Shown here: positions 10,234-44,758 of the stretch, piece by piece | Position numbering within the stretch: the first letter of the stretch is position 1 | Layout of the letters: every line of letters starts with the position of its first letter | Source of the DNA: Singulisphaera sp. GP187 | Lineage (GTDB): Bacteria > Planctomycetota > GCA-002687715 | Direction of reading: 5' to 3' | NCBI GenBank assembly: GCA_945907755.1 | Contig: CAMDTN010000004.1 | Location: 20,873 to 84,872 of the forward strand | DNA length: 64,000 nucleotides | Program-made: the position numbers and the translations under genes | Notes under the pieces: generated by a model | What the model was told of the DNA's origin: nothing | Seen by the model: the letters and a program-made list of their open reading frames with translations, nothing else | Databases searched by the model: none

Positions 10234-11195
10234 AGACTGGCAGCGTCGACATTTCCGTGATCATCATTTGTTCGGAACCGCGTCGTACGGCGCTGTTCAA
10301 GGAACTCATGGTCTCGTTCCGCCAAGTCTTGGAACGCATGGGCCGCAGCCATGAAGTGCTGGTGGTGGATGACGGTGCCGGTGCCACCTTTGCCCAAGCT
10401 GTATTGGAAGTTCGTGAAACGTGGCCCGCAGTGTCGTTGTTGCGTTTCCGGCGCACGTTTGGAACTAGCGTGGCCCTCGACGCAGCGGTGGAGCGCACCC
10501 GCGGACGTTATGTGATCGTGTCCACTTGGTATTTGCAGGTCGACCCAGAAGGCCTCACGGAAATGGTGCGCCGGTTGGACGAAGGCATGGATTACGTTGC
10601 CGTGCGACGTGAACCACGCTGCGATGGAACTTTAGGGCGCATCCAGTCGTGGCTTTTCAACGCCTACACGCGGCGCCTCACCGGAATGGATGTGCGCGAT
10701 TTGAATTGCGCGTTTCGCGCCTTCCGCCGCGAAGTCTTAGAGGAAATCGCACTCCACGGGGATCTGTTCCGATTCCTATCCATCTTGGCATTGCGCCGCG
10801 GTTTCCGCGTCGTGGAGATCCCCTTGCGGCATTTGCGCGAGGAGGGCACCAAGGGGGTGATTCACCCGGGCCTCTATGTTCGCCGCTTCTTGGACATCTT
10901 GTCCTTATTCTTCTTGGTCAAGTTCACCAACAAACCGTTGCGTTTCTTCGGGCTTGCTGGCTTGAGCTTCGCTGGAATCGGCTCAGTGATTTGTGTGTGG
11001 ATGGCGTGGCTGCGCATCTTCGACGACAAGGGGCTGGCCGAGAAACCACTGCTGATCCTCGGGCTCTTCTTGATCATCCTCGGCTTCATCATCGGAAGCA
11101 TCGGGCTGATCGGCGAGATCATCATTTTCACCCAAGGGCGCAGTCTGCGTGATTATCACATCGACGAAGTCATCGGTCGCGAGGATGAGGCGTGA
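10227..11195 (+). CDS. GT2-fold paralogue of the upstream transferase with lost catalytic motifs
   Basis: It aligns collinearly with 9286-10233 and keeps the C-terminal TM helices. However, YNEE becomes CSEPR, NRGQTAA becomes TFGTSVA, and MDADLQNDP becomes STWYLQVDP. It overlaps the upstream stop. Confidence 0.75.
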   Translation: MLKTGSVDISVIIICSEPRRTALFKELMVSFRQVLERMGRSHEVLVVDDGAGATFAQAVLEVRETWPAVSLLRFRRTFGTSVALDAAVERTRGRYVIVSTWYLQVDPEGLTEMVRRLDEGMDYVAVRREPRCDGTLGRIQSWLFNAYTRRLTGMDVRDLNCAFRAFRREVLEEIALHGDLFRFLSILALRRGFRVVEIPLRHLREEGTKGVIHPGLYVRRFLDILSLFFLVKFTNKPLRFFGLAGLSFAGIGSVICVWMAWLRIFDDKGLAEKPLLILGLFLIILGFIIGSIGLIGEIIIFTQGRSLRDYHIDEVIGREDEA

Positions 11196-12235
11196 GCGGG
11201 GCAACCATCAGAGAATTGACTCCCGAGCGCGAGGGTGCGTGGCAAGCCTATGTCTTGGCGCACCCACACGGGACTCTCTTTCACGACCTCGCGTGGCGCC
11301 ACATGCTGCGCAAGACTTTCCGTCATCGGTGCTGCTACCTCATGGCCGAACAAGATGGCCAGATACGCGGCGTGCTGCCCTTGGTGATCATTCGCTCGAT
11401 TTTTTTCGGCACTTCCGTTGTCAGTGTGCCCTTTGGCGTCTACGGGGGCGTGCTTGCCGATGATGCGGCCAGCACCGTAGCCTTGTGCGACGCTGCAACG
11501 GAGGCTGCCGCAGATGCGGGCGCCGCCTACGTGGAATTGCGCCATTTGCATTTGCCGCCCGCATGCGACCTCCCGGAATCCGGGCTGCACTGCACCTTCA
11601 TCAAAGACTTGCCGAATACCGTCGAGGAAGTGCTGCCCAGCATCCCACGAAAGGCGAGGGCAGAAGTGCGCAAGGCACGCACTGCGGGAGTGCTGACGGT
11701 CAATACCAAGCCGGTGACCATCCCAGAGTTCCACTCGCTCTTCGCTGAAAACAAGCGCAAGCTCGGTTCGCCGATCTTTCCGAAGTCGATGTTTTGGAAC
11801 TTGCACGAAGCCTTGCCGGGCCGCGTGCACACCATGGCTGTAGAAAAAGATGGCCGCGCCATCGCAGTACTGATGAGCTTTCTGTGGCGCGACACGTTTA
11901 TGGCCTATTACTCCGGCGCTGATGACACAGCGAATGCTTCATCTGCCAACAACCTGCTCTACGCGGCGGCAATGGAAGAGGCCGTGCGGCTGGGTGCGAA
12001 GACATTTGACTTCGGTCGTTCGCGGCGCGACACAGGGCCCTACGCCTTCAAGGTGAATCAAGGATTCGAACCGCTCCCGCTGCACTACCAGTTTGTCACC
12101 AAGCGTGGTGCGCGGCTGCCCTCGATCAACGCTAGCAACCCGCGTTATGACTTTGCCAAGAAGCTGTTCCGCTCGCTCCCAATGATGGCAGCGGAAAAGC
12201 TGGGTTCGTTTGTTGCAAAGCGCATGCCAGTGTGA
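11192..12235 (+). CDS. FemAB-like / GNAT (Acetyltransf_6-type) protein
   Basis: The 347-aa length and N-terminal pattern (W..YV..HP.GTLFH...W) resemble the FemAB-related proteins found in exopolysaccharide loci. GTGA overlap with the upstream stop. Assignment is from memory. Confidence 0.65.
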   Translation: MSGATIRELTPEREGAWQAYVLAHPHGTLFHDLAWRHMLRKTFRHRCCYLMAEQDGQIRGVLPLVIIRSIFFGTSVVSVPFGVYGGVLADDAASTVALCDAATEAAADAGAAYVELRHLHLPPACDLPESGLHCTFIKDLPNTVEEVLPSIPRKARAEVRKARTAGVLTVNTKPVTIPEFHSLFAENKRKLGSPIFPKSMFWNLHEALPGRVHTMAVEKDGRAIAVLMSFLWRDTFMAYYSGADDTANASSANNLLYAAAMEEAVRLGAKTFDFGRSRRDTGPYAFKVNQGFEPLPLHYQFVTKRGARLPSINASNPRYDFAKKLFRSLPMMAAEKLGSFVAKRMPV

Positions 12236-12251
12236 CATCGCCGGGTAACCT

Positions 12252-13640
12252 GTGCCCATGAGTGAGGCGAGTTTCTTGCTGGCGTTGCGCGCTGCCGTCG
12301 GGTCATCCTTGGCCACCGACGAAGATTCGTTGCAACGAGCTTCCAGCGACTGGTCCGGCCGCAAGGGTTCGTGCAGCGCGGTTGTGTGCGTGCGCTCCGA
12401 GGCTGATGTCGTCGCGGTGCTCACGCTTGCCGCAGCGCACCAATTTGCGGTCGTGCCGCGTGGCGCCGCAACTTCTGCCACCGGCGCGGCCGTACCGCTG
12501 AACGGTGCCGTGGTACTGGACTTCACTGGCATGAACCGCATCTTGGCGCTGGATGTTGCGGACATGGTTGCGGAGGTCGAACCGGGAGTGGTGACGCATC
12601 AACTGCAAGCGCGAGCCGAAGAAGTGGGTTTGCTGTATCCGCCGGACCCGGCGTCAAGCGATCAATGCACTCTGGGCGGCAACGTGGCCACCTGTGCTGG
12701 CGGTTTGCGCGCGGTGAAGTATGGCGTCACACGTGACTATGTGCTTGGCCTGCGCTGCGTATTGCCTGGAGGCGAAGTGTTTGAAACCGGCGGCCGCAAC
12801 CTGAAGGATGTCAGTGGCTACGATCTCACGCGCTTGTTGGTCGGATCCGAAGGCACGCTTGCAGTGATCACACGCATCACGCTGAAACTGGTGCCGCTGC
12901 CGCCCGGGCGCAGCACGCTGTTGGCATCTTTCGCCAATGACGACGGCGCGTTTGCTGCCGCAGATCTTCTCCTTGCGAATGGCGTGTGGCCACGAGCACT
13001 TGAGACGATGGATGCGCAAGCGCTGCGTCTCGCAGCGACAGCAGTAGGCGAGGCGGTGCACGACAGCGTGCGTTCGCGCTTGCTGGTTGAATTGGACGGC
13101 GAAGTAGGCGCCGTGGCCGAAACGGAAGCGCGCGTGCTGCGGCTTCTGACAGCACACGCAACGGCTGTAGACATGGCCAATACTGCGACGGCACATGCCC
13201 TTGTTTGGGCAGGGCGCCGTGCCATCTCCGCTGCGGTGCTGACCATCACCCCGGCGAAGCGCTCGGAGGACTTGGGCGTGCCACGAGGCCAACTGGCTGC
13301 AGCGGTGAGGGAATTGCGCGCCATCGGCAAGAACTACGGCATCGGCGTTCTTGTTTATGGTCATGCGGGCGATGCGAACTTGCACTGCAATTTCCTGTAC
13401 GACCCCATAGAAAACGGCAGTGCGAAGCGCTTGGAAGCCTGTGTTCAAGCCGCTTATGCAGCCGTGTTGCGGCGTGGTGGCACGCTGACAGGCGAGCACG
13501 GCGTGGGGTTGCGCAAGCGCGTTGCAGTTAGCGCAGCCCTTGGTCCGGTACGCTGCCGCCTGATGCGCGCGATCAAACATGCATTCGACCCCAATAACCT
13601 GCTGAACCCCGGCAAGGTGTTGCCCCCGGAGCAACCATGA
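12252..13640 (+). CDS. FAD-linked oxidase (GlcD / D-lactate dehydrogenase family)
   Basis: FAD_binding_4 pattern VVPRGAATSATGAAVP...VVLDFTGMNRIL...EPGVV and TLGGNVATCAGGLRAVKYGVTRDYVLGL. The C-terminal GEHGVG is present. ATG 12258 is an alternative start. Confidence 0.88.
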   Translation: MPMSEASFLLALRAAVGSSLATDEDSLQRASSDWSGRKGSCSAVVCVRSEADVVAVLTLAAAHQFAVVPRGAATSATGAAVPLNGAVVLDFTGMNRILALDVADMVAEVEPGVVTHQLQARAEEVGLLYPPDPASSDQCTLGGNVATCAGGLRAVKYGVTRDYVLGLRCVLPGGEVFETGGRNLKDVSGYDLTRLLVGSEGTLAVITRITLKLVPLPPGRSTLLASFANDDGAFAAADLLLANGVWPRALETMDAQALRLAATAVGEAVHDSVRSRLLVELDGEVGAVAETEARVLRLLTAHATAVDMANTATAHALVWAGRRAISAAVLTITPAKRSEDLGVPRGQLAAAVRELRAIGKNYGIGVLVYGHAGDANLHCNFLYDPIENGSAKRLEACVQAAYAAVLRRGGTLTGEHGVGLRKRVAVSAALGPVRCRLMRAIKHAFDPNNLLNPGKVLPPEQP

Positions 13641-14989
13641 AAGTCCTGCTTGCAGACGACGAACGCACAATCACAGTGCCGCTACGGGACGACCTGATAG
13701 ATGCAGGACATGATGTGACCGTGGTGGATCGTGGCGATACTGCCGTCGAGAAACTAGCGGCGGATCACTACGATGTGCTGATCACAGACATCAACATGCC
13801 CGGCGTGCGTGGTGACGAACTGCTGGTGAAAGCTACCGAGTTGCGCCCAGGGATCGCCGTGGTGATTGTCACAGGCTTCGGCACGGTGCAGTCCGCCGTG
13901 CAGGCCATGAAGAATGGCGCAGCGGACTATGTGCTGAAACCATTCGTGAATGAACAGATTGTGCTGCTCCTCGGGCGTATCGCGCACTTGAACGACTTAG
14001 AGGCGGAAAACCGCAACCTCCGCCATCAGATCACCGACCTGACGGGATTCGAGCATGTGGTTGGTTCCAGCGAACAGATGCAGCAAGTGTTCCGCACCAT
14101 CCGCACCGTTGCGCCGTCCGATTCCACTGTGCTGATCATGGGTGAGACGGGCACCGGCAAGGAGATTTTCGCGCGGGCACTTCACAATCTGTCGGGGCGT
14201 TCCAGTGGCCCTTTGGTGGCGATTTCCTGTGCCGCCATTCCCAGCACCTTGCTGGAAGACGAACTCTTTGGGCACGAGAAGGGTGCTTTCACGGACGCAC
14301 GCGAACGCAAGCTCGGACGCATCGAGCGCTCCAACGGCGGCACATTCTTCTTAGATGACATCGACGACATGCCACTCGCCACGCAAGTTAAACTGCTACG
14401 CGTGTTGCAAGAGCGCGAAGTGGAGCGCTTAGGCGGCGACCGCGTGTTGCACGTGAATATCCGCGTGGTTGCTGCCACCAAAGTCGATCTGCGCAGCATG
14501 GTGCGCGACGGGCGCTTTCGCGAGGATTTGTTCTACCGTCTGAATGTGGTGCCGATTCGTTTGCCGCCGCTGCGCGAGCGCGTGGGGGACGTACCTCTCT
14601 TAGTGCGGCATTTCATGCGCAAGTTTAGCCATGGTGAAAGCTATGTCGTGAAGGCCGATGTGATGGCCATGCTGGAACGCCATCATTGGCCCGGGAATGT
14701 GCGCGAACTCGAGCACTCGGTGGAACGCGCCATTGCCATGTCTGGTCCGGAACATGTGCTGCGTCGCGAACACATGTTGGACAAGGATCCGCTGCATCCA
14801 CATTCGACACCTGCGCCCACGAATATTGATTCGTTGAAAGTTGTGCTGGAGCGTGCGGAGCGGGATGCCGTCGTTCGGGCGTTGAATCTGTGTGACAGCA
14901 AGTCGCAAGCTGCGGACGCACTTGGGATCAGCCGCAAATCGCTTTGGGACAAGTTGCGCTTGCACAGCATCGAGGACTCCAAGCCGTGA
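13637..14989 (+). CDS. Sigma-54-dependent response regulator (NtrC/AtoC family enhancer-binding protein)
   Basis: REC domain with DD pair and acceptor Asp (VLITDINMPG). AAA+ domain with Walker A GETGTGKE. The sigma-54 contact loop reads GAFTDA (canonical GAFTGA). A C-terminal Fis-type HTH (SKSQAADALGISRKSLWDKL) is present. ATGA overlap with the upstream gene. Confidence 0.93.
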   Translation: MKVLLADDERTITVPLRDDLIDAGHDVTVVDRGDTAVEKLAADHYDVLITDINMPGVRGDELLVKATELRPGIAVVIVTGFGTVQSAVQAMKNGAADYVLKPFVNEQIVLLLGRIAHLNDLEAENRNLRHQITDLTGFEHVVGSSEQMQQVFRTIRTVAPSDSTVLIMGETGTGKEIFARALHNLSGRSSGPLVAISCAAIPSTLLEDELFGHEKGAFTDARERKLGRIERSNGGTFFLDDIDDMPLATQVKLLRVLQEREVERLGGDRVLHVNIRVVAATKVDLRSMVRDGRFREDLFYRLNVVPIRLPPLRERVGDVPLLVRHFMRKFSHGESYVVKADVMAMLERHHWPGNVRELEHSVERAIAMSGPEHVLRREHMLDKDPLHPHSTPAPTNIDSLKVVLERAERDAVVRALNLCDSKSQAADALGISRKSLWDKLRLHSIEDSKP

Positions 14990-25210: not shown

Positions 25211-26875
25211 CTATGAAATGCCGGTGCCATCGCGCAGCCAGTCGTGAAAGGCCCTGCTAGCGGCCACCAGCGGGATGCGGCGCCCTGTTCCGAAGGCCTT
25301 GGCGGACACCTTGAGCCCAGGAGCTGCCTGACGCCGCTTGTGCTCGCTGCCGGCGACCAAGCGCAGCACCTGTTCCACCAGCGCTGGTTGCAGCAATGGC
25401 GCCGCTTCAATAATCGCCCGCGCACCCATGCCGTTCTCGATGTGAAATCGCAGGATTTGATCCAGCATTTCATAGGGCGGCAAGGAATCTTGGTCGGTCT
25501 GATTTGGCCGCAACTCCGCACTCGGTGCCTTGTCGATGCTTGCGCGTGGCAGTAGTCCTTCGGCCGCGTAGCCCTCTGCAAGCGCGTACACCTCTGTCTT
25601 CCATACATCGCCGATGGGCGCGAGGCCGCCGCACATGTCGCCATAAAGCGTGCAGTATCCCGTGGCCAGTTCGGACTTATTTCCCGTCGTGACCAACATC
25701 CAGCCGGTGCTGTTGCTCATGCCCATCAGCAGTAACCCACGCACGCGGGCTTGCAGATTCTCTTGCATGAGACCGAACGGTTGCGTTCCGAGCACTCGTT
25801 CCAATCCCGATAATGCTGCGCGGTTGGTCGCGTCAATCGGTAACTCGTCGGACGGCATGCCTAAGGCCTTCGTCAGCGCACGAGCATCGGTGAGGCTCCC
25901 CTCGGAGCTAAATTCGGACGGCAACAACAACCCGCGCACGCGTTTCGGCCCGAGCGCCTCGGCACACAAACATGCGCACACCGCAGAATCGATGCCGCCG
26001 GATAGCCCCAGCAACACGCCTGGAAAGCCACACTTGTTGACATAGTCGCGGATCCCCAGCACCAACGCTGCGCGCACTTCAGCAACAGACCCCGCCACGG
26101 CGCTACTGGCCACTGTGTGGCCGAGCACAACTGCACTCGAACAGTGTGGCCCTTGCGCAATCACACTGCCGTCCGCACGCAGCACCACGGAGTTCCCATC
26201 GAAGATGAGTTCGTCGTTCCCGCCAACCAAATTGCACAATGCCACGGGCACGCCCAAGCGCAGCGCCGTGCCATGCACCAGTTCATGACGCACTGCGGGC
26301 TTGCCGCGGCTGTAAGGAGACGCGGACAGGTTGATGATCAGCTCCGCCCCAGCCGCCACAGCGCTGGCCGCCGGATCGAGGCTGTAGCGCGGCACTTCCA
26401 AGTCTTGCTGCTGCACCCACAGGTCTTCGCAAATGGTGACTCCGATTCGAGTGCCAGCCACAGTGACCACCGGGCCCTGTGGCCCGGGTTCGAAGTAACG
26501 GGCCTCGTCGAAGATGTCATAGTTCGGCAGCAGCCGCTTCTCCCACCTAGCCCGCTCTTGGCCGCCTTCCAGCAACACCGCAACATTTGAGAAAGGACGC
26601 CCTCTCCCAGTCCGAAGGGCGACCGTACCCACTATGAGTGGAATGCTGACCTCCCCCGCCAAGGCGCGCATTCTGTCTGCGGCGGCTTCGACGAATCGTC
26701 GCCTGAACAGGAGATCTCGTGGCGAGTACCCAACTAAGGCCAGCTCTGGCGTTACCGCTAACTGAGCGCCGGCAGCGGCCGCTTCATGGGCCGCGGCAAG
26801 GATGGCCGCGTAGTTCCCGTCGATGTCCCCTGGGGTCGTGTTCAGCTGCAGCAAGGCCACCCGGGAGAGGTCCAT
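25211..26875 (-). CDS. nadE: Glutamine-dependent NAD+ synthetase
   Basis: N-terminal CN-hydrolase domain (VTPELALVGY). C-terminal PP-loop synthetase domain (GLSGGIDSAV). 554 aa. Confidence 0.93.
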   Translation of the reverse strand: MDLSRVALLQLNTTPGDIDGNYAAILAAAHEAAAAGAQLAVTPELALVGYSPRDLLFRRRFVEAAADRMRALAGEVSIPLIVGTVALRTGRGRPFSNVAVLLEGGQERARWEKRLLPNYDIFDEARYFEPGPQGPVVTVAGTRIGVTICEDLWVQQQDLEVPRYSLDPAASAVAAGAELIINLSASPYSRGKPAVRHELVHGTALRLGVPVALCNLVGGNDELIFDGNSVVLRADGSVIAQGPHCSSAVVLGHTVASSAVAGSVAEVRAALVLGIRDYVNKCGFPGVLLGLSGGIDSAVCACLCAEALGPKRVRGLLLPSEFSSEGSLTDARALTKALGMPSDELPIDATNRAALSGLERVLGTQPFGLMQENLQARVRGLLLMGMSNSTGWMLVTTGNKSELATGYCTLYGDMCGGLAPIGDVWKTEVYALAEGYAAEGLLPRASIDKAPSAELRPNQTDQDSLPPYEMLDQILRFHIENGMGARAIIEAAPLLQPALVEQVLRLVAGSEHKRRQAAPGLKVSAKAFGTGRRIPLVAASRAFHDWLRDGTGIS

Positions 26876-26923
26876 TCGGGCTCAGCATAGGTGCAGCGGG
26901 CCTCTCAACCAGCCTCGCAAAAC

Positions 26924-26959
26924 GTTACCGTTCGGTAACAAGTGCGCGTTTCGGTAACA
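26924..26959. promoter_or_regulatory. Candidate protein-binding site: 16-bp palindrome plus a third half-site
   Basis: GTTACCG-TT-CGGTAAC at 26924-26939. TTCGGTAACA is repeated exactly at 26931-26940 and 26950-26959. The site is 49 bp upstream of the nadE start and about 165-180 bp upstream of the sigma-54 promoter at 27104. Confidence 0.45.
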
Positions 26960-27103
26960 CTTTCCAACTTGAAAACGGCCTCACGCGACTACCCACAAGT
27001 GTCAGGAAAAGTAATCTGAACGGCCATAAATAGCATTGGCGCAATGGGATGCAGCAGACTCGCTCTCATTTATCAAGTTTTTCGGCCCCAATTTGACCCC
27101 ATT

Positions 27104-27119
27104 TGGTACGGGACTTGCT
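27104..27119 (+). promoter_or_regulatory. Sigma-54 (-24/-12) promoter
   Basis: TGGTACGGGACTTGCT versus the consensus TGGCACG-N4-TTGCW, with one mismatch and exact GG-N10-GC spacing. It is intergenic, 66 nt upstream of ATG 27185. Confidence 0.6.
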
Positions 27120-27184
27120 TACATACCCCTCGCTGGAACTCACACCCTGTGAAAGAACCAGCGAACCACACGGAGATGATGAAC

Positions 27185-29122
27185 ATGCGCAAGACAGTGT
27201 TTGCAGCGGCGACGGTCCTCGCTCTCGCGATGATCGCCGAAATCGCGCTCGCCCACGGCGGCACCTATCAGGGCCCCGCAGGCGGCGGCACCCCGGGCTA
27301 TAGCGGCCCAATTGGGGGTGGAACCATTGGACCTCAGCCAGGTGGCACAACGCCTCCCTCGACGGGTGGCGCAACGCCGCCTCCCGCGGGTGGCGCAACG
27401 CCGCCCCCGAGCTCGGCACCCACGCCTCGCCCTGCGGCTCGCGGCACCGGCCCTGCCGGTGGTCGTGGCTTCGGCGGCTCCACGGGTGGCCGCGCGAAGG
27501 CCAAGGTCGAAGACCGCACCACCGATTGGGATTGGTGGTGGGATCTGAACGAAGAGCGCTTCTTGATGCTCAAGAACAAAGTTCGTTCACAGGAAGCCAG
27601 CTCGGATAACAAGGACACCTTCCTCGGTGGTTCCTTGGGCGGCGGTGCCTCTAAGGTGACCACCACTCAGATCCGCAAGGACATCCTCCCCAGCTTGCGT
27701 CTCGCACTGAAGGACCCCTACTACGACGCACGTGCAGGTGCCGTGATCGCGTTGGGCAAGGTCGGCGACAAGACGATGCCTGAAACCCTGAACGACCTCC
27801 GTGCGATGCTTGCTGACAAGGACAAAATCGTCCAAGAGTCCGCGTGCCTCGCGTTGGGCGTGCTCGGCAACAAGGAATCCTTGGCGGACCTGCTCGATGT
27901 AGCCAAGAACACCAAGACTGGCCAGAAGCTCGCAGGCAAGGAGGGCGCTGAAGTCCCGACTCGCATGCGCTCTTTCGCCGCTGTGTCCATCGGCCTGATC
28001 GGTGGCCGTGAAGGCTTCGGCGCTGGCGAGAACTACATCAAGGAACTGGTGACCATGGCTACCACCAAGGCCCCCAACCAAGATCTCCAGGTTGGCCCCG
28101 CGGTGGCGCTGCAAGTTGCGAAGTCGCAAGAAGCGGTGCCGGCGCTGATCGCCATGTACAAGGATGAAGATTTGGATAAGTGGGTGCGCGCACACGCCGG
28201 TGTGGCTCTGGGCAAGATTGGTGCCAAGGCCGCGATTCCTGAGCTGGTGAAGGGTTTGGATGACAAGGAGGGCTTCGTTGCCAACTCCGCCGCCATCTCC
28301 CTCGGCCTGCTCACGGACCCCAGCGACCGCGAGACCATCAACAAGCTCATCCGCTACGCCAAGAGCGCTCCTGAGCGTTCGACGCGCAACTTCTGCATGA
28401 TCGCGCTGGGCGAAATCGGCGATGCCAAGGGCAAGGCTCTCCTTCTGGAGAACCTGAGCAAGGGGCAAATGCACGATCGCACCTTCTCCGCACTGGCCCT
28501 CGGCATCATGGGCAACAAGTTCGAAGAAGGCCGCAGCGAATCCGGTCAGGCGCTGCTCGCGACCTACAAGGATCTGAAGAGCGACCAAGAGAAGTCGGCC
28601 ATGGCCATCGCCCTCGCATTGTGCGAGTACGAACCGGCCCGTGCTGCGCTGGCAGAAGACCTCGTGAAGGGTCAGGGCAACCAAGACCTGAAGGGTCACC
28701 TCTGCACCGCGCTGGGTCTGCTGAACCATGCGGACAGCATCCCCGCGATCCAGGAGCTGGCACGCCAGAAGGGCGACCAAGATCTGCGCAAGCGCGCTTC
28801 CATCGCACTCGGCCTGTTGAAGGACCCGGATGCAGTGGATGTGCTTGAGAAGGTCATTCGCGAGTCTGGCGCCAGCAAGGCGATCCTCGGCGCAGCCACT
28901 GTGGCCCTCGGCTACATCGGCGACCGCCGCGCTGTGCCTATCCTCGTCGCCATGGTCGAGAACAAGGCTGGTGAAGTGCAGGACGTGTCCCGCGCTTTCG
29001 CCACGGTTGCTCTCGGCTTCCTCGGTGACAAGGACGACATCCCATGCTTGTCCAAGATTCAGGAGAACTCCAACTACCTCGCTCAAACCGAGGCGTTGGC
29101 TGAGCTCTTGACCATCCTCTAG
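27185..29122 (+). CDS. Exported HEAT-repeat protein 1 (signal peptide, Gly/Pro-rich linker, Trp-rich motif, about 12 HEAT-like repeats)
   Basis: Signal peptide MRKTVFAAATVLALAMIAEIALA. The ATG is 9 nt after GGAG. A low-complexity GGTPG/TPPP region is followed by DWDWWWDLNEERF. Repeated A..ALG.iGd..a.p.L units (PBS-lyase HEAT-like) follow. Confidence 0.8.
   Translation: MRKTVFAAATVLALAMIAEIALAHGGTYQGPAGGGTPGYSGPIGGGTIGPQPGGTTPPSTGGATPPPAGGATPPPSSAPTPRPAARGTGPAGGRGFGGSTGGRAKAKVEDRTTDWDWWWDLNEERFLMLKNKVRSQEASSDNKDTFLGGSLGGGASKVTTTQIRKDILPSLRLALKDPYYDARAGAVIALGKVGDKTMPETLNDLRAMLADKDKIVQESACLALGVLGNKESLADLLDVAKNTKTGQKLAGKEGAEVPTRMRSFAAVSIGLIGGREGFGAGENYIKELVTMATTKAPNQDLQVGPAVALQVAKSQEAVPALIAMYKDEDLDKWVRAHAGVALGKIGAKAAIPELVKGLDDKEGFVANSAAISLGLLTDPSDRETINKLIRYAKSAPERSTRNFCMIALGEIGDAKGKALLLENLSKGQMHDRTFSALALGIMGNKFEEGRSESGQALLATYKDLKSDQEKSAMAIALALCEYEPARAALAEDLVKGQGNQDLKGHLCTALGLLNHADSIPAIQELARQKGDQDLRKRASIALGLLKDPDAVDVLEKVIRESGASKAILGAATVALGYIGDRRAVPILVAMVENKAGEVQDVSRAFATVALGFLGDKDDIPCLSKIQENSNYLAQTEALAELLTIL
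27364..27411 (+). repeat. Tandem 24-nt duplication inside the low-complexity linker of HEAT protein 1
   Basis: GGGTGGCGCAACGCCGCCTCCCGC followed by GGGTGGCGCAACGCCGCCCCCGAG. This encodes (T/A)GGATPPP twice. Confidence 0.85.
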
Positions 29123-29129
29123 TTCGGTC

Positions 29130-31022
29130 ATGAGCACCACACGGCATCCAACTGCAGCAATGCTCGGTTGGGTGCCGTGCTTCATTTTTCTGGTGACAAC
29201 GGCGCTGCTGCCAACAGTGTGCGCGCAAGATCCCTTTGGTTCGGCCTTCGGTGTTGCGTCTGGGTCTGGTTCCTATTCGGCACCGCCGGGCACTGCCCCG
29301 CCAATGGGCCAAGTCGATCCCGTGGGCGAACCCACAGACCCTGCGGCACCTGGAAGTGGCGCTGCAAGCGGAGCCCCTGTCGGCAAGACAAAATTTGGTG
29401 TGGCCGGCCGCGCGCGCGCGCGCTCGACTGCGCGCACGCCCACATGGCAACTGTGGTGGGGCATGAATGGCGAGCATTGGTTGCGCTCGCGTTCGCTCAC
29501 GCGTCAGCACGGGCTGGCTGGCTCCGTAGATGCTGCATTTTCCGCACTGCCGCGTTTCGAACCCATCGGACAGTCCCGCGCGCGCCGCGAGATTGTGCCG
29601 TTCCTCTTGCAACAACTGAACGCCGAATCACCAGCCATGCGCGCCTCCACGGTGATCGCGCTCGGGCGCATCTGCACTCACAAAGACAGCGCCGTGCAAT
29701 CGCGCGTGCGTTTGATGTTGACCGATCCCCAGTTGGATGTGCGTGCCGCGTGCCTCTTGGCGCTTGGTTTCATCGGATCAGAAGCGACGCTTCCAGAACT
29801 CATGGCCGTTGCGTTAGACGCCCCCTTCGGGCGCATGCTGCTGCACCAAAACAGAGAGATCCCAAATCAGTTGCGCTCGGTCGCGTGCATCGCACTGGGC
29901 ATGGTGTGCGCACGCAGCGGCAGCCCTTTGGCGACGAGTGCCACCCAGATGTTGCTGCGCATTGCTGCTGGCAACGAGCCTTCCGGAGACCTGAGAGGTT
30001 CCGCCATCTTGGCACTGGCTTTGTATTCGCCGCACAGTGCAGTGCCGCGGCTGATCGCGCTTGCGGGCGACACGGAACTCGAGCAGTCCTTGCGGGCTCA
30101 TGCCCTCACGACGCTGGGGCGCATCGGGGACCCGGCAGCAATCAAGCCTGTCGTTGCTGCTTTGCAGGATGAGCGCGGCCTCGTAGTCGCTGCTGCTGCA
30201 ACAGCTCTCGGCTTCCTCTGCAAACCTGACGATGACACTTCCTTAGCTGCGCTGCGCGCTGTAGCTGAAGGCAACGGCGACCGCCTCGCTGTGTCCGCCG
30301 CGATTCTCGCGTTGGGTGAATGTGGGCCAGCAGACACGCGCGAATTCTTGATGCAATTGCTGCAAGCTGATGCTCCATTCACCAGTGCTCACGCGGCACT
30401 CGCGTTGGGCGTGCATTGCAAGCGCTTGCCTCATGCGGCAACGGCCAGCGCCCTCACGGCAGCGTGGAACCGGTGCTCGAACTTGCAAGAAAAAGGCGCA
30501 TTCGGTGTGGCCTTGGCTATGGCGAAAGCTCCGGATGCAGCGCGGCTACTTGAAGCAGAGCTCAGCGCACGCTCTGTCGATCGTGAACTCGCAGCGTTTT
30601 TGAGCACAGCCTTAGGGATGCTGGGCGACCGACGCAGCGCCTTGGCTTTGCTGCCATGGATTTCACAAACCCGCGATCTGCACATGCGCGTGCGCGCCAC
30701 GCAAGGCGCGCTGATGCTGCACAGCGAGGAAGCTGTGCCGTTGTTGATTCAATTGCTGCCTGCAAGCCGCTCGTCCCAGGGATCATTCACCGCGACAGTG
30801 CATGCGCTGGGACTTAGCAGCGATGCGCGCGCGCTGCCCCCGTTGATCCAAGGTGCCGTCGATGAATCTGGCACGCTGCCCGAACTGTCCCGCGCAGCAG
30901 CCGTAGCTGCCTTGGGGATATTGGCTGACAAGGACCACGACTCGTTGCTGCTGGGTTTGCGCCGTGGGGCGCTGTATGGCGCGACAGGCGGCGCGTTGTC
31001 AGCACTGCTCAGAGTGCAGTAG
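29130..31022 (+). CDS. Exported HEAT-repeat protein 2 (paralogue of 27185-29122)
   Basis: Same architecture as protein 1: signal peptide (MLGWVPCFIFLVTTALLPTVCAQ), low-complexity region, Trp motif TWQLWWGMNGEHW, HEAT-like repeats and a similar C-terminal end. It starts 7 nt after the upstream stop. ATG 29160 is an alternative start. Confidence 0.78.
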   Translation: MSTTRHPTAAMLGWVPCFIFLVTTALLPTVCAQDPFGSAFGVASGSGSYSAPPGTAPPMGQVDPVGEPTDPAAPGSGAASGAPVGKTKFGVAGRARARSTARTPTWQLWWGMNGEHWLRSRSLTRQHGLAGSVDAAFSALPRFEPIGQSRARREIVPFLLQQLNAESPAMRASTVIALGRICTHKDSAVQSRVRLMLTDPQLDVRAACLLALGFIGSEATLPELMAVALDAPFGRMLLHQNREIPNQLRSVACIALGMVCARSGSPLATSATQMLLRIAAGNEPSGDLRGSAILALALYSPHSAVPRLIALAGDTELEQSLRAHALTTLGRIGDPAAIKPVVAALQDERGLVVAAAATALGFLCKPDDDTSLAALRAVAEGNGDRLAVSAAILALGECGPADTREFLMQLLQADAPFTSAHAALALGVHCKRLPHAATASALTAAWNRCSNLQEKGAFGVALAMAKAPDAARLLEAELSARSVDRELAAFLSTALGMLGDRRSALALLPWISQTRDLHMRVRATQGALMLHSEEAVPLLIQLLPASRSSQGSFTATVHALGLSSDARALPPLIQGAVDESGTLPELSRAAAVAALGILADKDHDSLLLGLRRGALYGATGGALSALLRVQ

Positions 31023-31554
31023 GCACTTTGCCGGCACGCCACAGTAGCCAGGCCACGCTGCAGGCGGCGCAAATGCCAAGCAACAAAGTCCATAGTTGTG
31101 CGTGATGCGCTTCTTCCATGCGTTGCTGCAGAGCGTTGGCTTGGGCCCACGCAGCACGGCGCAAGTCACCAGCTTGCGAGAAGGCCAGCAGCGCACCTTT
31201 GCGCTCGAAGCTCAACAGCAGCAAGTCGCCTTCCAGTGCGCGCAAGGCAGCCGCATTCGGGTCGGCATGCAGCAGAAGCTGAGCATCCGCCATGGCAGGC
31301 CCGAGCAGCTTCATCTCACTGAGCGCGACGGCGCGCCAGTAGCGCACAACTGGATCATCGGTGACCAGCACCTCACTCGCCTGCTGCACGAAGCCGCGCA
31401 GCCCAGCACTGCTCTCACGAAACTCTTGCAGCGCCCGCTGCAGCACCGACGAGCGCTGGCCGTTGTCCTGCACTCCCGCAAGCCGCTCTTGCAGACTCAC
31501 TTGGCCCGGCAACAGCGCCGCAACGACCCACAACGCAAGCAGACAACGCCGCAT
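31009..31554 (-). CDS. Hypothetical protein with signal peptide and C-terminal TM anchor
   Basis: Start at MRRCLLALWVVAALLPGQV. C-terminal TM LWTLLLGICAACSVAWLLW. The ATG is 1 nt after the upstream stop. Confidence 0.55.
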   Translation of the reverse strand: MRRCLLALWVVAALLPGQVSLQERLAGVQDNGQRSSVLQRALQEFRESSAGLRGFVQQASEVLVTDDPVVRYWRAVALSEMKLLGPAMADAQLLLHADPNAAALRALEGDLLLLSFERKGALLAFSQAGDLRRAAWAQANALQQRMEEAHHAQLWTLLLGICAACSVAWLLWRAGKVPTAL

Positions 31555-31555
31555 G

Positions 31556-33103
31556 TCAGCGTTCCCTCGCGAGCTGTTCGAGTGGCGCGAGATCATCGGT
31601 CAGAACCCGTGCGGTAGAGGCGGCGGACGGTGTCCAACGCACGCCGCGCGCGCTAATCAACACCGATTGCAGAACTGCGGGCGCGGCCAGCGGCAGCATG
31701 TTGCGCCCTGGCTCCACTGAGCAGAGCAAGATCACGCTCCAAGCGCCAGGCACACTGATGGCTTCGATGCTCGCAAACTGTTCCTGCAGCGTGGCCAGCA
31801 GCGCACGCATCAATGGCGATTCCAGATCCTGCGTGCTGACATTCACTGCGCAGAGGCCCATCGGCGCCAAATGACTGCGTGCCAGTTCGAGAAACTCGCG
31901 TGTGAAGAGATGCGCCGGAATGGCCAGTTGGCGTGCAAAGGCATCCAATACGATCAAATCGAAACGCTGATCCAACGCCGCAAGGCAGCGGCGCGCGTCG
32001 GCGGCAAGCACACGATCACAGGGCGCTGTTGGTGTGCCCATCGCTGTTGCAACTGCGCTGACAGCCGGGTCCAGTTCTACCGAAGTGATGGCACCCAAGC
32101 GCGCTCCAGCGGTGCTGCGCAGCAAGTGCGTCAATGTGCCTGCGCCTCCGCCCAAAATCAAAGTCTGCGGTTGTGTGCGCTGTTCGCATGCTGTCAAGGC
32201 AGCAAGGGCGAGCGTGTCGTAGTACTGGCCCGTGAGTGCTTGGCCTTCGACGCGCAGCGAATGAAACTCCCCGAGTCCCTCATCCAGTGCGAGCCGCAGT
32301 TCTGTTCTTCCTTGGTCAGTGCGCACGCGGGACAAGTGCAGGTGCTGGTAATCCGATTCTTGCAGCAGCAGGCGCTCGATTTCGACATCGTCAGTTCCAT
32401 CCGCAGGCCATGCGCGCGCATCGGGCCCCGCTGCGGCATTCATGAAAAGCCCAGCAAGCACGAATAGACAGAGTGCGATCCCACGCCATGATCCACGAGT
32501 CAGCAACAGCACTACTAACGCGTAGCACACGGCCGCACAGCTCAGCACACCGCGCGGTCCGAGGGCATGAAGCGCTGCACCATTCACTGCAAACACAGCC
32601 AGCAGTCCTCCACAGGTAGAAGCCGTCAGCAGAGCACCGAGCGACTGCTTTCCATACGACACCAACAAGGGTGTCAACGCGCTCATGCACATCACTGGAG
32701 TGGCCAACACCGACAATGAAAGCGCCAGACTGCCGAGGGTGAGCGCGCTGCGTGCTTCCGGCGGCGTGCTGCCCACGGGCAACACGAGGCCTTCCGCAAT
32801 CCAAGGAACGAGCAGTGCGCCAAGCACCAAGGTCACGCATGCGCCCCCGCCGACCAGAACAGCACGTGCCCGCAATTGACCGCACCGCGTCATGCGTCCG
32901 CCCAGCAGTGCGCCAGCGGCACCAGCAGCAAGCAGCACGGCGATGACGTTGCTCCAGACCGGTGCTGAAGTGCCGAACCAAGGGGCGAACGCGCGCACCG
33001 CTGTGATTTCTGTGCCTAACCAGCCCGCACCGCAAAGAAACGCTGCGCCCAGCGCCGTGTGCCGGCTGATCCCTGCCTCGCTTTGTGCAGCAGCGTCACT
33101 CAC
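31556..33103 (-). CDS. Membrane-fused spermidine-synthase-like protein (polytopic N-terminal domain plus SAM-fold aminopropyltransferase-like domain)
   Basis: About 6 hydrophobic helices, then LILGGGAGTLTHLL, VELDPAV and DLIVLDAF, which resemble SpeE motifs. The start is uncertain: GTG 33103 lies 10 nt after the upstream stop, while the ORF-track start 33280 would overlap the upstream gene by 167 nt. Confidence 0.7.
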   Translation of the reverse strand: MSDAAAQSEAGISRHTALGAAFLCGAGWLGTEITAVRAFAPWFGTSAPVWSNVIAVLLAAGAAGALLGGRMTRCGQLRARAVLVGGGACVTLVLGALLVPWIAEGLVLPVGSTPPEARSALTLGSLALSLSVLATPVMCMSALTPLLVSYGKQSLGALLTASTCGGLLAVFAVNGAALHALGPRGVLSCAAVCYALVVLLLTRGSWRGIALCLFVLAGLFMNAAAGPDARAWPADGTDDVEIERLLLQESDYQHLHLSRVRTDQGRTELRLALDEGLGEFHSLRVEGQALTGQYYDTLALAALTACEQRTQPQTLILGGGAGTLTHLLRSTAGARLGAITSVELDPAVSAVATAMGTPTAPCDRVLAADARRCLAALDQRFDLIVLDAFARQLAIPAHLFTREFLELARSHLAPMGLCAVNVSTQDLESPLMRALLATLQEQFASIEAISVPGAWSVILLCSVEPGRNMLPLAAPAVLQSVLISARGVRWTPSAASTARVLTDDLAPLEQLARER

Positions 33104-33113
33104 GCCGCTGCTA

Positions 33114-34547
33114 TTAGCCGCCACTCTTGGGCGCTTCGGGCTGTTCGGGCGCGGGAACGGTGATGCGCAACTCACCCACGACCATAGCGCTCGGGTCAGT
33201 GGGGTTGTCGTCGGAGAACCCCAGCATGTAATCAAGGCTGCGCTCAACCTTGGCTTCAAGAACTTCCTTGTCGTTGACAAATACCTTCACCGGCTTGTCC
33301 AAATCCAGCATGCGGTCGTTCAGATACAAACGGCATGCCTGTAGGTTCTGGCTCTTAATGCGTACGGCGTTGGCAGCACGGTCCAATTCAGCGGACACGA
33401 CCACGCTGAGCCCGGCTTCTTTGTCAGCATCACCGCGATCGATCACCAACCACGCAGTACGGCGATAACGGCTGAGGTCGTCAGTGACATACGCGAGGGA
33501 ATCAGGGAAGGGTTTACGCTGCCGCGCCGCAAAGAAAGCAAGTATCTCAGCACTAGCGTCGACCACAGGGTCCACCTTCTGCGAACCTAACGCTGCCTTG
33601 ACTTTACCGGGATCTAACGCCGGAAACGTCTTCAACTCGAGGTCTAATGCATTCGCGGCCTTCAGGGCATCCAACTGGGTGCGCAGCGTCTTGCCGTCCT
33701 CGGATGCGAACAATTGATCCTCGCGGCTCACGATCATAATGCCCGCTTGGCTCTTCAAGTTCACCAAAAAGTTCTGCGCTTTGGGGCTCGCATTGCGCAC
33801 CGCCACCGCCGCAAACAATTTTGGTTGCAGCGACGCGAGGTCCAATCCTGCACGGCCCCCTTCACCGCAGCCTTCCAAGAAGATTCGAGTGGTGTCGATG
33901 TTGCAGAGCTTCAGCGCTTCGCTGATGCACTTGGCGATGCCGAAGTAATGCACCGGCCCATACCAGTCCACGCGCATTTGGTCGCTGGCTTTCTTGCCCA
34001 CGGTGCGCTCACCGATGGATGGAGCGATGATCACAAACTGGTCGCGCAGCTCGCGCAGTTCTTTGTCGTTGCGCAGCAAGACTTCGTTCAGGTACTTCTC
34101 GCCGTTGCTGCCTTTGTCGTGGAGCGCAACAATCAAAGGCCAAGTCTTACGGCCGTCATACAGCGGCGGCACATACAAAGTGAAATCGAAACCGATTTCC
34201 TTGCCGCGCTCTGCATGGTCCGCACGCAGATTGCGCGCGCGCCCGCAGCCGTCAGGTTTCTGCACTTTGCCCTTTGCATTCACCCGCGCAAATACGTCCA
34301 CCCAAGAATCCACATGGCGCAGGATGTCTTCGCCCTTGTGGGCCTCGCGCACTTTTTCGATGGCGAGCTTCTGGGCGTCACGGGCCTTGTCCAAGGCCTT
34401 CTCTGCTTTTGCCCCAACCCCACCCTTGGCACCGCGCACATCGCTCACAACCCCAGCCAACGTCTCACGCTCCGCTTCGGTCAACCCGGGCTGCTGCGCG
34501 CACACGACGGGCAACAACATGACCAAACACAACATCGCGATTTTCAT
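33114..34547 (-). CDS. Secreted alpha/beta-hydrolase-like protein (esterase/PHB-depolymerase fold) apparently lacking the nucleophile Ser
   Basis: Signal peptide MKIAMLCLVMLLPVVCAQQ. YVPPLYDGRKTWPLIVALHDKGSNG resembles esterase N-terminal motifs. The nucleophile elbow reads FLEGCGEGG (Gly where GxSxGG has Ser). A C-terminal extension of about 200 aa follows. Confidence 0.55.
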   Translation of the reverse strand: MKIAMLCLVMLLPVVCAQQPGLTEAERETLAGVVSDVRGAKGGVGAKAEKALDKARDAQKLAIEKVREAHKGEDILRHVDSWVDVFARVNAKGKVQKPDGCGRARNLRADHAERGKEIGFDFTLYVPPLYDGRKTWPLIVALHDKGSNGEKYLNEVLLRNDKELRELRDQFVIIAPSIGERTVGKKASDQMRVDWYGPVHYFGIAKCISEALKLCNIDTTRIFLEGCGEGGRAGLDLASLQPKLFAAVAVRNASPKAQNFLVNLKSQAGIMIVSREDQLFASEDGKTLRTQLDALKAANALDLELKTFPALDPGKVKAALGSQKVDPVVDASAEILAFFAARQRKPFPDSLAYVTDDLSRYRRTAWLVIDRGDADKEAGLSVVVSAELDRAANAVRIKSQNLQACRLYLNDRMLDLDKPVKVFVNDKEVLEAKVERSLDYMLGFSDDNPTDPSAMVVGELRITVPAPEQPEAPKSGG

Positions 34548-34641
34548 GAGTGGTTCCGAGAGCGGCACGCACGATTCGTGCGTCCGCAAGTGGATGGTAC
34601 GGGGGCGGCTTCTGCGCCGTCAACCGCGGTGGTGCGGAGCG

Positions 34642-41862: not shown

Positions 41863-43275
41863 TCAGCCTTCCTTGCGCGCGGCGAGATCCAACAAACGCA
41901 ACTGCTGTTCACACAGTGTCGGAAACCGCTTGTGCGCTTGCAGCACCGCTGCGCGCGCTTCGGATCCATCGATGGCACCGAGCACCCCGATCAAGAACGC
42001 AGCGCGTGCTTCGTCGGATGTAGCGCTCAATCGTTGGGCAACGGCGGGCACCATCGTGCTGTTGTTGCCGCTGCAAACAGGCGCAATTTGCCCAGGGTGC
42101 GAGAGGGTGCTGTCTAACAGCGCCGCGAATAGTGCATCCGTGGGCACCCCGCCTCGTGCGGCCAATCCGCTCACCACGGCTTCAGCATCACCGGGCCGGT
42201 GCTCTGCAACCAGCGCGCCTACTCTCTCGATGTCAGATGCGTTGCCAGCCGCCGCAATCACTTGGAGTGCCAAGAGTCTCTTCGTGCTCGCCGGGGCCCC
42301 AGAGGTCAGCCCCTCGCGTGCATGCTGCAACACCTCCGCGTCGCCAAGCAGCGCTAGTGTGCTCAGGACCAGCCCTTCGAGGCTTGGCGGCACCTCACCG
42401 CGGAATTGACGGAGCCGTGGGATGTAGCTGCTGAGCCGCAAGTCGACCATCGCTTCTAAGGCTGCATGCAGCTCTGGCATCAAGCGCGCATCTAGCCCTT
42501 GGGCGTAAAACCCGTCAGGTGCTGGGCGGCCGAGGCGGCCAAGAGCGTGCGCAGCGCGAACGCGAACGCCTAACTCTTCATCCTGTAGCAATTCCACCAA
42601 CCGTGGCAGGAATGACTTCAATTGCAGCCTCGCGACATAATCAATCGCGTCGGCGCGCACGGTCGCAATGGAGTCCTTTAAGGCTCGATCGAGAATCAAC
42701 GGCGTTTCAGGCCCACCGCAGGCCAGCGCCGCATCCAAGATGATCAAACGCGTTTGCGTCCCCGCATTGGGATGGTCGCGGTTGATCTCGTCATAAAACT
42801 TGCACAGCAGTGGAACGAATGCAGGATCGCGCTGAGTGCGCGCAACAATCGGGCCCTTTGAGCGCACTTCGAAGTCTGGGTGCTGGAAGATCTCTTTGCT
42901 TGGGCCGACAAAATCAGCGCTGCGCACCAGGGCAAATATGTCCGCGAAGGCGCTCGCTTCGTACTTCGAAATGTTGGTTCGCCCTGCCCACGCGTTCAAC
43001 ACAGCGCGACGGGTCGATTCCTCGTTGCACAGCAGTGCGATGTCGTCCTTCATGCCACCAATCAGTCCGGCTGCGCCGGACGTGAGCTGATCGAGGCACT
43101 GCTGCACCGCGCGCTGGCGCTCGGCCGGAGCGGCAAACAAATGAAATGACGGCGTGCGGCCGCTCGGTAGTGTTCGAACTGGCGGAGCCTCGGGTTCGCC
43201 GCGAAAAGCGAGGAATGCGTAAGCCAGCCCAATGGCTACCAAGATGACCAGCAAGATGCGCGCGAGTTGTGGCAT
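41863..43275 (-). CDS. Membrane-anchored HEAT-like repeat protein
   Basis: N-terminal TM ILLVILVAIGLAYAFLAF. HEAT-like units such as LQDEELGVRVRAAHALGRLG. It starts 3 nt after the upstream stop. Confidence 0.65.
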   Translation of the reverse strand: MPQLARILLVILVAIGLAYAFLAFRGEPEAPPVRTLPSGRTPSFHLFAAPAERQRAVQQCLDQLTSGAAGLIGGMKDDIALLCNEESTRRAVLNAWAGRTNISKYEASAFADIFALVRSADFVGPSKEIFQHPDFEVRSKGPIVARTQRDPAFVPLLCKFYDEINRDHPNAGTQTRLIILDAALACGGPETPLILDRALKDSIATVRADAIDYVARLQLKSFLPRLVELLQDEELGVRVRAAHALGRLGRPAPDGFYAQGLDARLMPELHAALEAMVDLRLSSYIPRLRQFRGEVPPSLEGLVLSTLALLGDAEVLQHAREGLTSGAPASTKRLLALQVIAAAGNASDIERVGALVAEHRPGDAEAVVSGLAARGGVPTDALFAALLDSTLSHPGQIAPVCSGNNSTMVPAVAQRLSATSDEARAAFLIGVLGAIDGSEARAAVLQAHKRFPTLCEQQLRLLDLAARKEG

Positions 43276-43278
43276 CGC

Positions 43279-44499
43279 TCACCCTCCTCGTTGTGCGTTG
43301 CGTGCAGCGCGCCGCAGCGCTTCGACGCTCAGGAATGCAGGCGTCAATAGTCGATTGAGCAGTTCCACGCGGGCATTCTCCTCCGGCAGCAAGCGCATCT
43401 GAGCGAGCACTCGTTCGAGGACTTCGCGGCCTCTCAAGCCATCCACGCGCGCAATGGCTGTCAAGGTGGCGTCGAGAATATCGCGTTGCGGCAACAGCGC
43501 CACAAGTGCATCCAGACTTTCTGGGCCCGCCAGTTTGCCCACAGCTTCAACGCGTGCGCTGCGTTCAGCGCGCTCAGCGCTTGCCGGAATGTCCAGTAAT
43601 TTCGCGACGCTCGCTTCGCTGCCAAGGTCGCCTAGCAAAAGCGCGGATTCTTGACGGAGGTGCCCAGCCGTAGCCCCGAGCAGTGCCTCCAATGCCGAGC
43701 GTCCGCGAGCCGCGAAGCGCGCTGCAAATGCGCCCAAGAACTCTGGCTGCCTTGATGCGTGCGCGCGCAAAGTGCGCTCTAAGAGCCGCACCCAAGCGTC
43801 GCGCTCGTCACCTTCCTTGACTGTAGTTTCTGTTCCGTAGCAGACACCCAACACGCTCTTGCGAATACGCTGCGACAAAGCCGTTGCAATGTGGCGGTCT
43901 TCGAGCGGCAAAGATGCCCCGGCCCGATGGACGGTGCCTGCGTCTTCCCACTGCAGGCAGACCGCGTTCATCTCGCTCAGTCGGCACAACTCGCGAAGTC
44001 CTGCTCGCTGTGCGAAAGTCGAAGTGGAGCGCACGCCGCTGAGGGAAAGTTCGCGCAGAGTTTCGTGGAGCTGCGGACCGTTGGGCTGCGCCGCAAGGCG
44101 CAGGGTGCTTTCGACCAGCACTGGTCCGATCACTGAATCGTCAGCAGTGAGATCGATCAAGTCCACTGCTGCGAAAACACTCGACTTCGGATCGCCCTTG
44201 AGGAACAGCAGCTTGGACAATTCTGGGTACGCGGCGCCGCGCGTGCCCAAGCCGCCCACGCGCACTTCACTCAGCTTGCCGCCCTTGAAACAGCGCTCGA
44301 CCTTGAAGACAGTCAACTGAACACTGGCGGACACCAGGCGATCGCTTACCCAGCGCCCCTGCACGATGACATCGGAGCGGTCGAGCAGCGCTCCGCACAG
44401 CCAAGGCTTGGTTTGGCCCCATGCGGCTACGACACAACAAAGCAGCATTATGCAAACCCGCATGAGAGGCCATTCTATGCCTCCCAACCGGCTCGCCAC
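43279..44499 (-). CDS. Hypothetical secreted protein with a C-terminal alpha-helical (HEAT-like) region
   Basis: Signal peptide MRVCIMLLCCVVAAWGQ. The start is GTG 44499 or ATG 44463. I recognise no domain. Confidence 0.55.
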   Translation of the reverse strand: MASRLGGIEWPLMRVCIMLLCCVVAAWGQTKPWLCGALLDRSDVIVQGRWVSDRLVSASVQLTVFKVERCFKGGKLSEVRVGGLGTRGAAYPELSKLLFLKGDPKSSVFAAVDLIDLTADDSVIGPVLVESTLRLAAQPNGPQLHETLRELSLSGVRSTSTFAQRAGLRELCRLSEMNAVCLQWEDAGTVHRAGASLPLEDRHIATALSQRIRKSVLGVCYGTETTVKEGDERDAWVRLLERTLRAHASRQPEFLGAFAARFAARGRSALEALLGATAGHLRQESALLLGDLGSEASVAKLLDIPASAERAERSARVEAVGKLAGPESLDALVALLPQRDILDATLTAIARVDGLRGREVLERVLAQMRLLPEENARVELLNRLLTPAFLSVEALRRAARNAQRGG

Positions 44500-44742: not shown

Positions 44743-44758
44743 AGCAAACCCCGTGCCA
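44743..44758 (-). promoter_or_regulatory. Sigma-54 (-24/-12) promoter
   Basis: Minus strand reads TGGCACGGGGTTTGCT, a full match to TGGCACG-N4-TTGCW. It is intergenic, 35 nt upstream of ATG 44707. Confidence 0.65.

Follow-up and report, generated by a model that had tools for sequence, protein, structure and literature searches.

TGGTACGGGACTTGCT is very probably a real sigma-54 promoter in front of a pair of HEAT-repeat genes in the 64-kb stretch of DNA analysed here (the window), and we put the probability that it functions as such at about 0.85, based on the conservation of the motif and of an upstream dyad before genes of the HEAT family. Observed across this protein family were the motif, the place where it lies and the joint conservation of motif and dyads. 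The element would be a standard enhancer-dependent sigma-54 promoter and is ordinary in kind; what appears to be new is the conserved promoter-plus-dyad module of an uncharacterised, phylum-wide family of apparently exported proteins.

The candidate promoter and its intergenic region

Inspection of the window located TGGTACGGGACTTGCT on the forward strand at 27104..27119, with the GG at 27105-27106, the GC at 27117-27118 and a spacer of exactly 10 nt. Compared to the consensus TGGCACG-N4-TTGCW, a single departure was found, a T instead of C at the fourth consensus position (27107). The GG-N10-GC core of a sigma-54 (-24/-12) promoter within TGGCAC-N5-TTGCW is thus present with one departure, on the sense strand, in non-coding DNA and at a workable distance from a start codon. 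The site lies in a 309 bp gap (26876..27184) with the divergent nadE gene (-) on one side and the HEAT1/HEAT2 pair (+) on the other; this gap has a GC content of 51.5%, lower than that of the whole window (61.2%) and of the genes on either side (about 63%). An earlier note on this DNA had described the motif with its one exchange and exact spacing, its location in an AT-richer gap, the 66 nt between the last base of TGGTACGGGACTTGCT and ATG 27185, and a GGAG at 27172. All of these details were recovered from the sequence, and the N-termini of orthologues (MRK/MRT...) back ATG 27185 as the start. The features of the region are as follows:

25211..26875, - strand: nadE, glutamine-dependent NAD synthase (Pfam NAD_synthase and CN_hydrolase)
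26924..26939: enhancer-like dyad 1, GTTACCgttcGGTAAC, a perfect 6-N4-6 palindrome starting 180 nt before the first T of the promoter
26943..26958: enhancer-like dyad 2, TGCGCGtttcGGTAAC, 3 nt after dyad 1, with a degenerate left half and a perfect right half
27104..27119, + strand: predicted sigma-54 (-24/-12) promoter TGGTACGGGACTTGCT, from consensus, family matrix and conservation before relatives
27129..27131, + strand: predicted transcription start, taking C27118 as position -12 in the standard -24/-12 geometry
27130..27164, + strand: stem-loop TCGCTGG...CCAGCGA with inner CAC/GTG (inverted repeat I1), at the predicted start of the transcript
27172..27175, + strand: Shine-Dalgarno-like GGAG, 9 nt before ATG 27185
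27185..29122, + strand: HEAT1, 645 aa (Pfam HEAT_2, 2e-45, 153 bits)
29130..31022, + strand: HEAT2, 630 aa (Pfam HEAT_2, 7e-35, 120 bits), likewise with a signal-peptide-like N-terminus, and carrying a WQLWWGMN motif
31556..33280 and 33114..34589, - strand: neighbouring genes in conserved synteny (loci L001-L076)

A promoter scan of 26700..31700 detected no sigma-70-like promoter, and no RNA family scored above threshold in the gap 26876..27184 when it was searched against Rfam. The sole Rfam match there was a eukaryotic IRES below threshold, which was dismissed as spurious. The stem-loop at 27130..27164 is predicted to fold with -15.2 kcal/mol (z = -3.4) and would sit right at the start of the transcript. 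A similarly shaped hairpin with other stem bases is present in the closest relative, L001, though its fold was not significant (z -1.1), and in L002 a different fold was obtained at this position.

HEAT2 starts 7 nt past the stop codon of HEAT1, and co-transcription of the two genes is therefore presumed. A scan of this 7-nt junction revealed no terminator-like hairpin. In L002 the same arrangement was found with a gap of 11 nt and an intact pair, preceded by an extra HEAT1 paralogue. In L001, only C-terminal fragments of the HEAT2 orthologue (residues ~349-629) are left, in three frames at 8069..8855, so that the gene is a pseudogene or was wrongly assembled.

Conservation of the motif before HEAT-family genes

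A search with HEAT1 yielded 282 homologues (E<=1e-10), from Planctomycetota wherever a source is named. The family genes often stand in tandem, with 2-5 copies per locus. Upstream regions were compared in 76 loci obtained from a scan of one genome per species, nearly all of them labelled Planctomycetota MAGs, with gene starts estimated from alignments. These relatives are metagenome bins with the sole exception of the cultured Rohdeia mirabilis Pla163, which carries distant family genes with sigma-54-like sites. Closest to the window are L001 (MAG Baikal-deep-G176, GCA_009691765.1, 93% amino-acid identity) and then L002 (87%). At the position aligned to TGGTACGGGACTTGCT, L002 reads TGGCACAGACTTTGCT and L001 reads CGGCACCGTATTTGCT, with a C in place of the promoter's first T; the element stays in register while the flanks diverge. 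At distant loci the upstream sequence around promoter and dyads does not align.

Given that a matrix derived from the family is trained on the very regions it scores, counts of fixed patterns, which were not trained on the data, are reported alongside it. The pattern GG[CT]A[CT]-N5-TTGC precedes 65 of the 110 family genes, at 51 loci, when the 250 nt before each gene are read on the sense strand; the antisense strand of these regions has none. Its density was 2.11/kb upstream of family genes vs 0.012/kb elsewhere in the loci, where it is thus about 170-fold rarer. The pattern TGG[CT]A[CT]N5TTGC, scored on the sense strand from -250 to +30, occurred before 32 of 110 family genes with no antisense match, and only four times in the other 1.56 Mb outside upstream regions, an enrichment of about 400-fold. 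The iterated matrix, circular in that its training and scored regions are the same, placed a site before 79 of 108 family genes, compared to one of 108 reverse-strand controls that passed the threshold. Among the 79 matrix sites GG and TTG are invariant, the family consensus is yGGCAC-N5-TTGCw, and the median distance from the promoter's first T to the start codon is 88 nt. Of the 29 genes below threshold, about eight are operonic followers less than 100 nt behind another family gene, like HEAT2, and another 14 or so carry weaker GG-N10-GC sites, located at the usual 50-140 nt. Conservation before orthologues and paralogues, the lack of which the earlier note had named as grounds for abandoning its promoter reading, was therefore strongly borne out by the fixed pattern as well as by the matrix.

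The upstream double dyad and a candidate activator

Activators of sigma-54 classically bind tandem palindromes located 100-200 nt upstream, e.g. NtrC at glnAp2. In the window, GTTACCgttcGGTAAC is the sole 12/12 match to GTTWCC-N4-GGWAAC, and this dyad aligns with L001 and L002. The start-to-start offset from dyad 1 to dyad 2 is 19 nt, and a direct-repeat spacing of 19 was found as well. The same 19-nt register is seen in the GTTACC-N4-GGAAAC-N3-GTTTCC-N4-GGTAAC element of eight other loci (L003, L005, L007, L008, L009, L016, L018 and L021). Across the family the double palindrome takes the form GTTACC-N4-GGwAAC-N3-GTTwCC-N4-GGTAAC and is located at a median of 154 nt (IQR 138-168) before the promoter's first T; in nearly all of the closer relatives it lies some 150-180 nt ahead of the promoter. 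When dyads with 10 or more of the 12 positions matched are counted, their density is 1.70/kb at that place vs 0.11/kb over all loci, an approximately 15-fold enrichment. A dyad was found at nearly all family genes with at least 38% identity to HEAT1, dyads were also present between tandem family genes (e.g. L007, L016, L018, L020 and L021), and more distant members of the family carry the variant GTTwCG-N4-CGwAAC. The double dyad and the promoter together form the layout expected for the site of an enhancer-binding protein, and the dyads at 26924..26958 are, in our estimate, probably the enhancer of the sigma-54 promoter. A literature search did not return the GTTACC-N4-GGTAAC dyad as a known activator site, and the dyad is not known to be one.

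Metagenome contigs scanned for the exact double dyad gave only 13 loci, the pattern being too strict to reveal more members. Two of them (L084 and L086) are family loci, and in both a sigma-54 site follows 171 nt downstream. The remaining loci comprise one low-GC phage-like contig and otherwise unrelated 19-bp tandem repeats. On the phage-like contig (L077 11900..12060, SDBU01000182.1) the same GTTACC-N4-GGTAAC double dyad is flanked by the sigma-54-like sites TGGCACGTTTTTTGCT, which is perfect, and TGGCGCGACGTTTGCA; no activator gene was detected in this 13-kb locus. An IHF site was also considered: TATCAAGTTTTTC at 27071 has one mismatch and was rejected as a conserved part, as the family showed no convincing excess of the IHF consensus (5 sites with <=1 mismatch in 10.7 kb), nor was an AT-rich peak obtained.

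The window encodes one candidate for an activator of this class:

13637..14989, + strand: NtrC-family enhancer-binding protein gene (receiver, Sigma54_activat with E 1.3e-69, AAA lid and HTH_8)

In NCBIfam it comes closest to AtoC, PEP-CTERM-box and NtrC without reaching any of their cut-offs, and its GAFTGA loop reads GAFTDA. An AAA+ enhancer-binding activator with a loop variant is thus encoded in the genome, and by its predicted domains the gene shows that sigma-54 machinery is used in the source organism. It overlaps the stop codon of a FAD-linked oxidase gene (12252..13640) by 4 nt, and no histidine kinase gene is adjacent to it. No rpoN was detected in the 64-kb window when practically every ORF of 150 aa or more was scanned against Pfam. 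In Rhodopirellula baltica, rpoN is RB6491 (PMC2754498), and according to the supplement of a 2025 survey, rpoN with the full AID-CBD-DBD architecture is present in all ~73 Planctomycetota genomes surveyed (PMC12316311). The proposal of the earlier note that TGGTACGGGACTTGCT is a sigma-54 promoter gains support from the conservation before relatives, the enhancer-like double palindrome upstream and the lack of a sigma-70-type promoter in the scanned region, and further from the NtrC-family gene in the window and the generality of rpoN in Planctomycetota.

When the window's activator was used in tblastn searches, no linked activator was detected within 6 kb of family genes in the 76 loci, and no match was obtained in the dyad-containing metagenome loci. 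The cognate activator would therefore be unlinked, and since no activator gene lies near the family genes, we connect an activator with the dyads purely by inference. In the mechanism that we propose, RNA polymerase with sigma-54 would occupy the GG (27105-6) and GC (27117-8) as a closed complex. An AAA+ activator, encoded away from the operon, would bind at 26924..26958, where the double palindrome lies about 180-200 nt before the start, contact the polymerase via DNA looping and spend ATP to open the promoter. Transcription would then run from about 27130 through HEAT1 (27185..29122) and HEAT2 (29130..31022) as a two-gene operon.

A short GC-rich consensus may be matched by chance in a 61% GC genome without any promoter function, and by the match itself TGGTACGGGACTTGCT is indeed not exceptional. 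With up to one mismatch the consensus is found 4 times in the window vs 2.0 expected, which is not significant, and similar high-scoring sites lie within genes at 12214..12229 (-) and 30010..30025 (+). For TGGYAY-N5-TTGCW, 3 matches were obtained vs 0.45 expected, a number reached in one of 100 shuffles, and the family-derived matrix returned 3 sites with at least the score of TGGTACGGGACTTGCT vs 0.09 expected per 64 kb of first-order Markov sequence. In a full scan with this matrix TGGTACGGGACTTGCT scored 20.5, the second-best site in the window. The two top sites, TGGTACGGGACTTGCT and TGGCACGGGGTTTGCT at 44743..44758 (-), are both intergenic and both face HEAT-like operons; intergenic DNA makes up about 4% of the window. 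Consequently, it is position, orientation and conservation before relatives, not the match, that make TGGTACGGGACTTGCT convincing. A chance match, which would leave no reason for position, orientation and start-codon distance to be kept before most of the 110 family genes at no fewer than 51 loci, is very unlikely in view of the zero antisense matches, the 170- to 400-fold enrichment and the site's alignment in L001 and L002 between diverging flanks. A different factor, such as an ECF-type sigma or a repressor, might alternatively read the bipartite element, since a few distant members have GGGAAC-N5-TTGC, which resembles an ECF -35 box. ECF promoters require about 16-17 nt between their boxes, though, and the invariant GG and TTGC, the GG-N10-GC spacing and the agreement of yGGCAC-N5-TTGCw with the sigma-54 consensus, as quoted in the survey (PMC12316311), make this reading highly improbable.

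The remaining alternative accepts the sigma-54 site as real and takes the dyads for an ordinary transcription-factor operator, e.g. for nadE, with the activator site elsewhere or activation from solution. The dyads are indeed 49-83 nt from the nadE start codon, the family genes lack a linked activator gene, and exact copies of the double dyad exist as 19-bp tandem repeats on unrelated AT-rich contigs without sigma-54 sites. Yet nadE is the neighbour of the HEAT genes in just 16 of 76 loci, while the dyads stay 138-168 nt from the HEAT promoter and recur between tandem HEAT genes in the five loci named above. An operator role is thus unlikely, and a sigma-54 promoter served by a double-dyad enhancer is the reading we prefer.

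The HEAT proteins, their neighbourhood and known systems

With 153 and 120 bits, HEAT1 and HEAT2 score far above the Pfam HEAT_2 gathering cut-off of 27.7; HEAT2 is a divergent paralogue of HEAT1 with ~27-30% identity. Both proteins appear, to judge from their N-terminal sequences, to be exported. In an N-terminal alignment of the HEAT1 family the N-terminus is basic, then hydrophobic and ends in A/G, and directly after the predicted signal-peptide cleavage site a His-Gly-Gly is invariant (..A/G|HGG.Y.GP.GGG, alignment A1; HEAT1 residues 1-140 correspond to 27185..27600 of the window). In HEAT1, as in the rest of the family, this is followed by a Gly/Pro/Thr-rich linker of about 85 aa that is disordered in the AlphaFold model, a basic patch, a WDWWWDLN helix and then an alpha-solenoid of about 480 residues (residues 160-645). 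The mean pLDDT of the model is 80, with values mostly >90 in residues 160-645. Foldseek retrieved generic solenoids for HEAT1, with alphaRep on top and also Rpn1/Rpn2, karyopherin-beta2 and the PP2A A subunit, and an assignment of function from structure was rejected as these PDB matches are generic. An identity as NblB or CpcE was likewise rejected: NCBIfam scores were 70.5 bits vs 300 (NblB) and 62.8 vs 330 (CpcE), and since all scores were far below the cut-offs, HEAT1 is placed outside these families. HEAT1 shares repeat type and fold with PBS-lyase-type HEAT proteins (HEAT_2/HEAT_PBS; NblB, CpcE-like; alphaRep), and differs from NblB, CpcE and alphaRep by its predicted signal peptide, the His-Gly-Gly, the long Gly/Pro linker and the WDWWWDLN helix. 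The natural guess for proteins of the HEAT1 family would be that they serve in binding or as scaffolds outside the cytoplasm, and the invariant N-terminal histidine hints at metal binding.

Next to the HEAT genes, a large membrane protein with a spermidine-synthase-like domain is encoded in 44 of the 76 loci and an esterase/PHB-depolymerase-like protein in 38; among the more distant loci, about 20 have sdhABC genes as neighbours. Many of the tandem family copies have their own promoter, and some have a dyad as well. A syntenic family with often 2-5 tandem copies, many with a promoter of their own, suggests that dosage or the choice of variant matters.

Classical sigma-54 promoters (glnAp2/NtrC, nifH/NifA, pspA/PspF) are enhancer-dependent and follow the consensus TGGCAC-N5-TTGC. 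The region described here resembles them in its -24 GG and -12 GC, the tandem palindromes ~100-200 nt upstream, the absence of -35/-10 boxes and the presence of an NtrC-family AAA+ activator gene in the same genome segment. In contrast to the classical systems, the activator is not encoded beside its target, no conserved IHF-type site lies between dyads and promoter, the GTTACC-N4-GGTAAC dyad was not found as a known activator site, and the module is a prediction from sequence. In Planctomycetota, an in-silico sigma-54 regulon of Pirellula sp. strain 1 was reportedly described by Studholme and Dixon in 2004 (cited in PMC12316311). The 2025 PLoS One survey ties sigma-54 to envelope, secretion and stress genes in Planctomycetia (PMC12316311); phylum and promoter type of those regulons are the same as here, and its main text and accessible supplements do not mention HEAT-repeat proteins. 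A literature search returned nothing that ties sigma-54 or the GTTACC dyad to this HEAT family.

Taken together, these results may be read as a dedicated, phylum-wide module of double-dyad enhancer and sigma-54 promoter in front of nearly every transcription unit of the HEAT family. Its products, secreted and tandemly amplified solenoids with an invariant N-terminal histidine and a Gly/Pro tether, would form a so far undescribed, signal-gated component of the planctomycetal cell envelope or periplasm under a single unlinked activator. We hold this joint reading only tentatively, at slightly less than even odds. A sigma-54 promoter stays silent unless a specific activator switches it on. If the promoter is confirmed, abundant, conserved and uncharacterised exported HEAT proteins would be made only on a signal, and the conserved dyad would offer a handle for finding the activator, and thereby the signal and the condition of HEAT production. 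With its distant family genes and sigma-54-like sites, the cultured Rohdeia mirabilis Pla163 makes the question testable.

Several further sigma-54-like sites were noted in the window. A third high-scoring site, TGGCATGCGCTTTGCA at 12214..12229 (-), lies antisense within the final codons of a GNAT/FemAB-like gene (11192..12235 +). No gene on the minus strand follows this site, and it is either a chance match or an intragenic/antisense sigma-54 site. TGGCACTGGCTTTGTA at 30010..30025 (+), within the HEAT2 coding sequence, scores well and has TTGT for TTGC; lacking the invariant GC, it is probably not functional. A weak site, AGGCATGCCGTTTGTA, is located at 33325..33340 (-). Genes for a GGDEF diguanylate cyclase and a HisKA-domain protein, a signalling pair, adjoin each other at 6466..9020 (-).

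The second promoter candidate, TGGCACGGGGTTTGCT, matches the sigma-54 consensus perfectly and lies 36 nt before a 64-aa ORF. The genes behind it are:

44707..44513, - strand: 64-aa ORF
44499..43279, - strand: HEAT-like protein with a hydrophobic N-terminus
43275..41863, - strand: HEAT-like protein with a hydrophobic N-terminus

For the 406-aa protein of this operon only two homologues were found in the protein database. The TGGCACGGGGTTTGCT promoter is conserved in the Baikal MAG (L091 3713..3728, TGGCACGATACTTGCG) before an orthologous small ORF and gene pair (56% identity). Upstream of TGGCACGGGGTTTGCT other palindromes were observed, TGCGCAA...TTGCGCA, and as these differ from the GTTACC dyads, a different activator is suggested for this operon.
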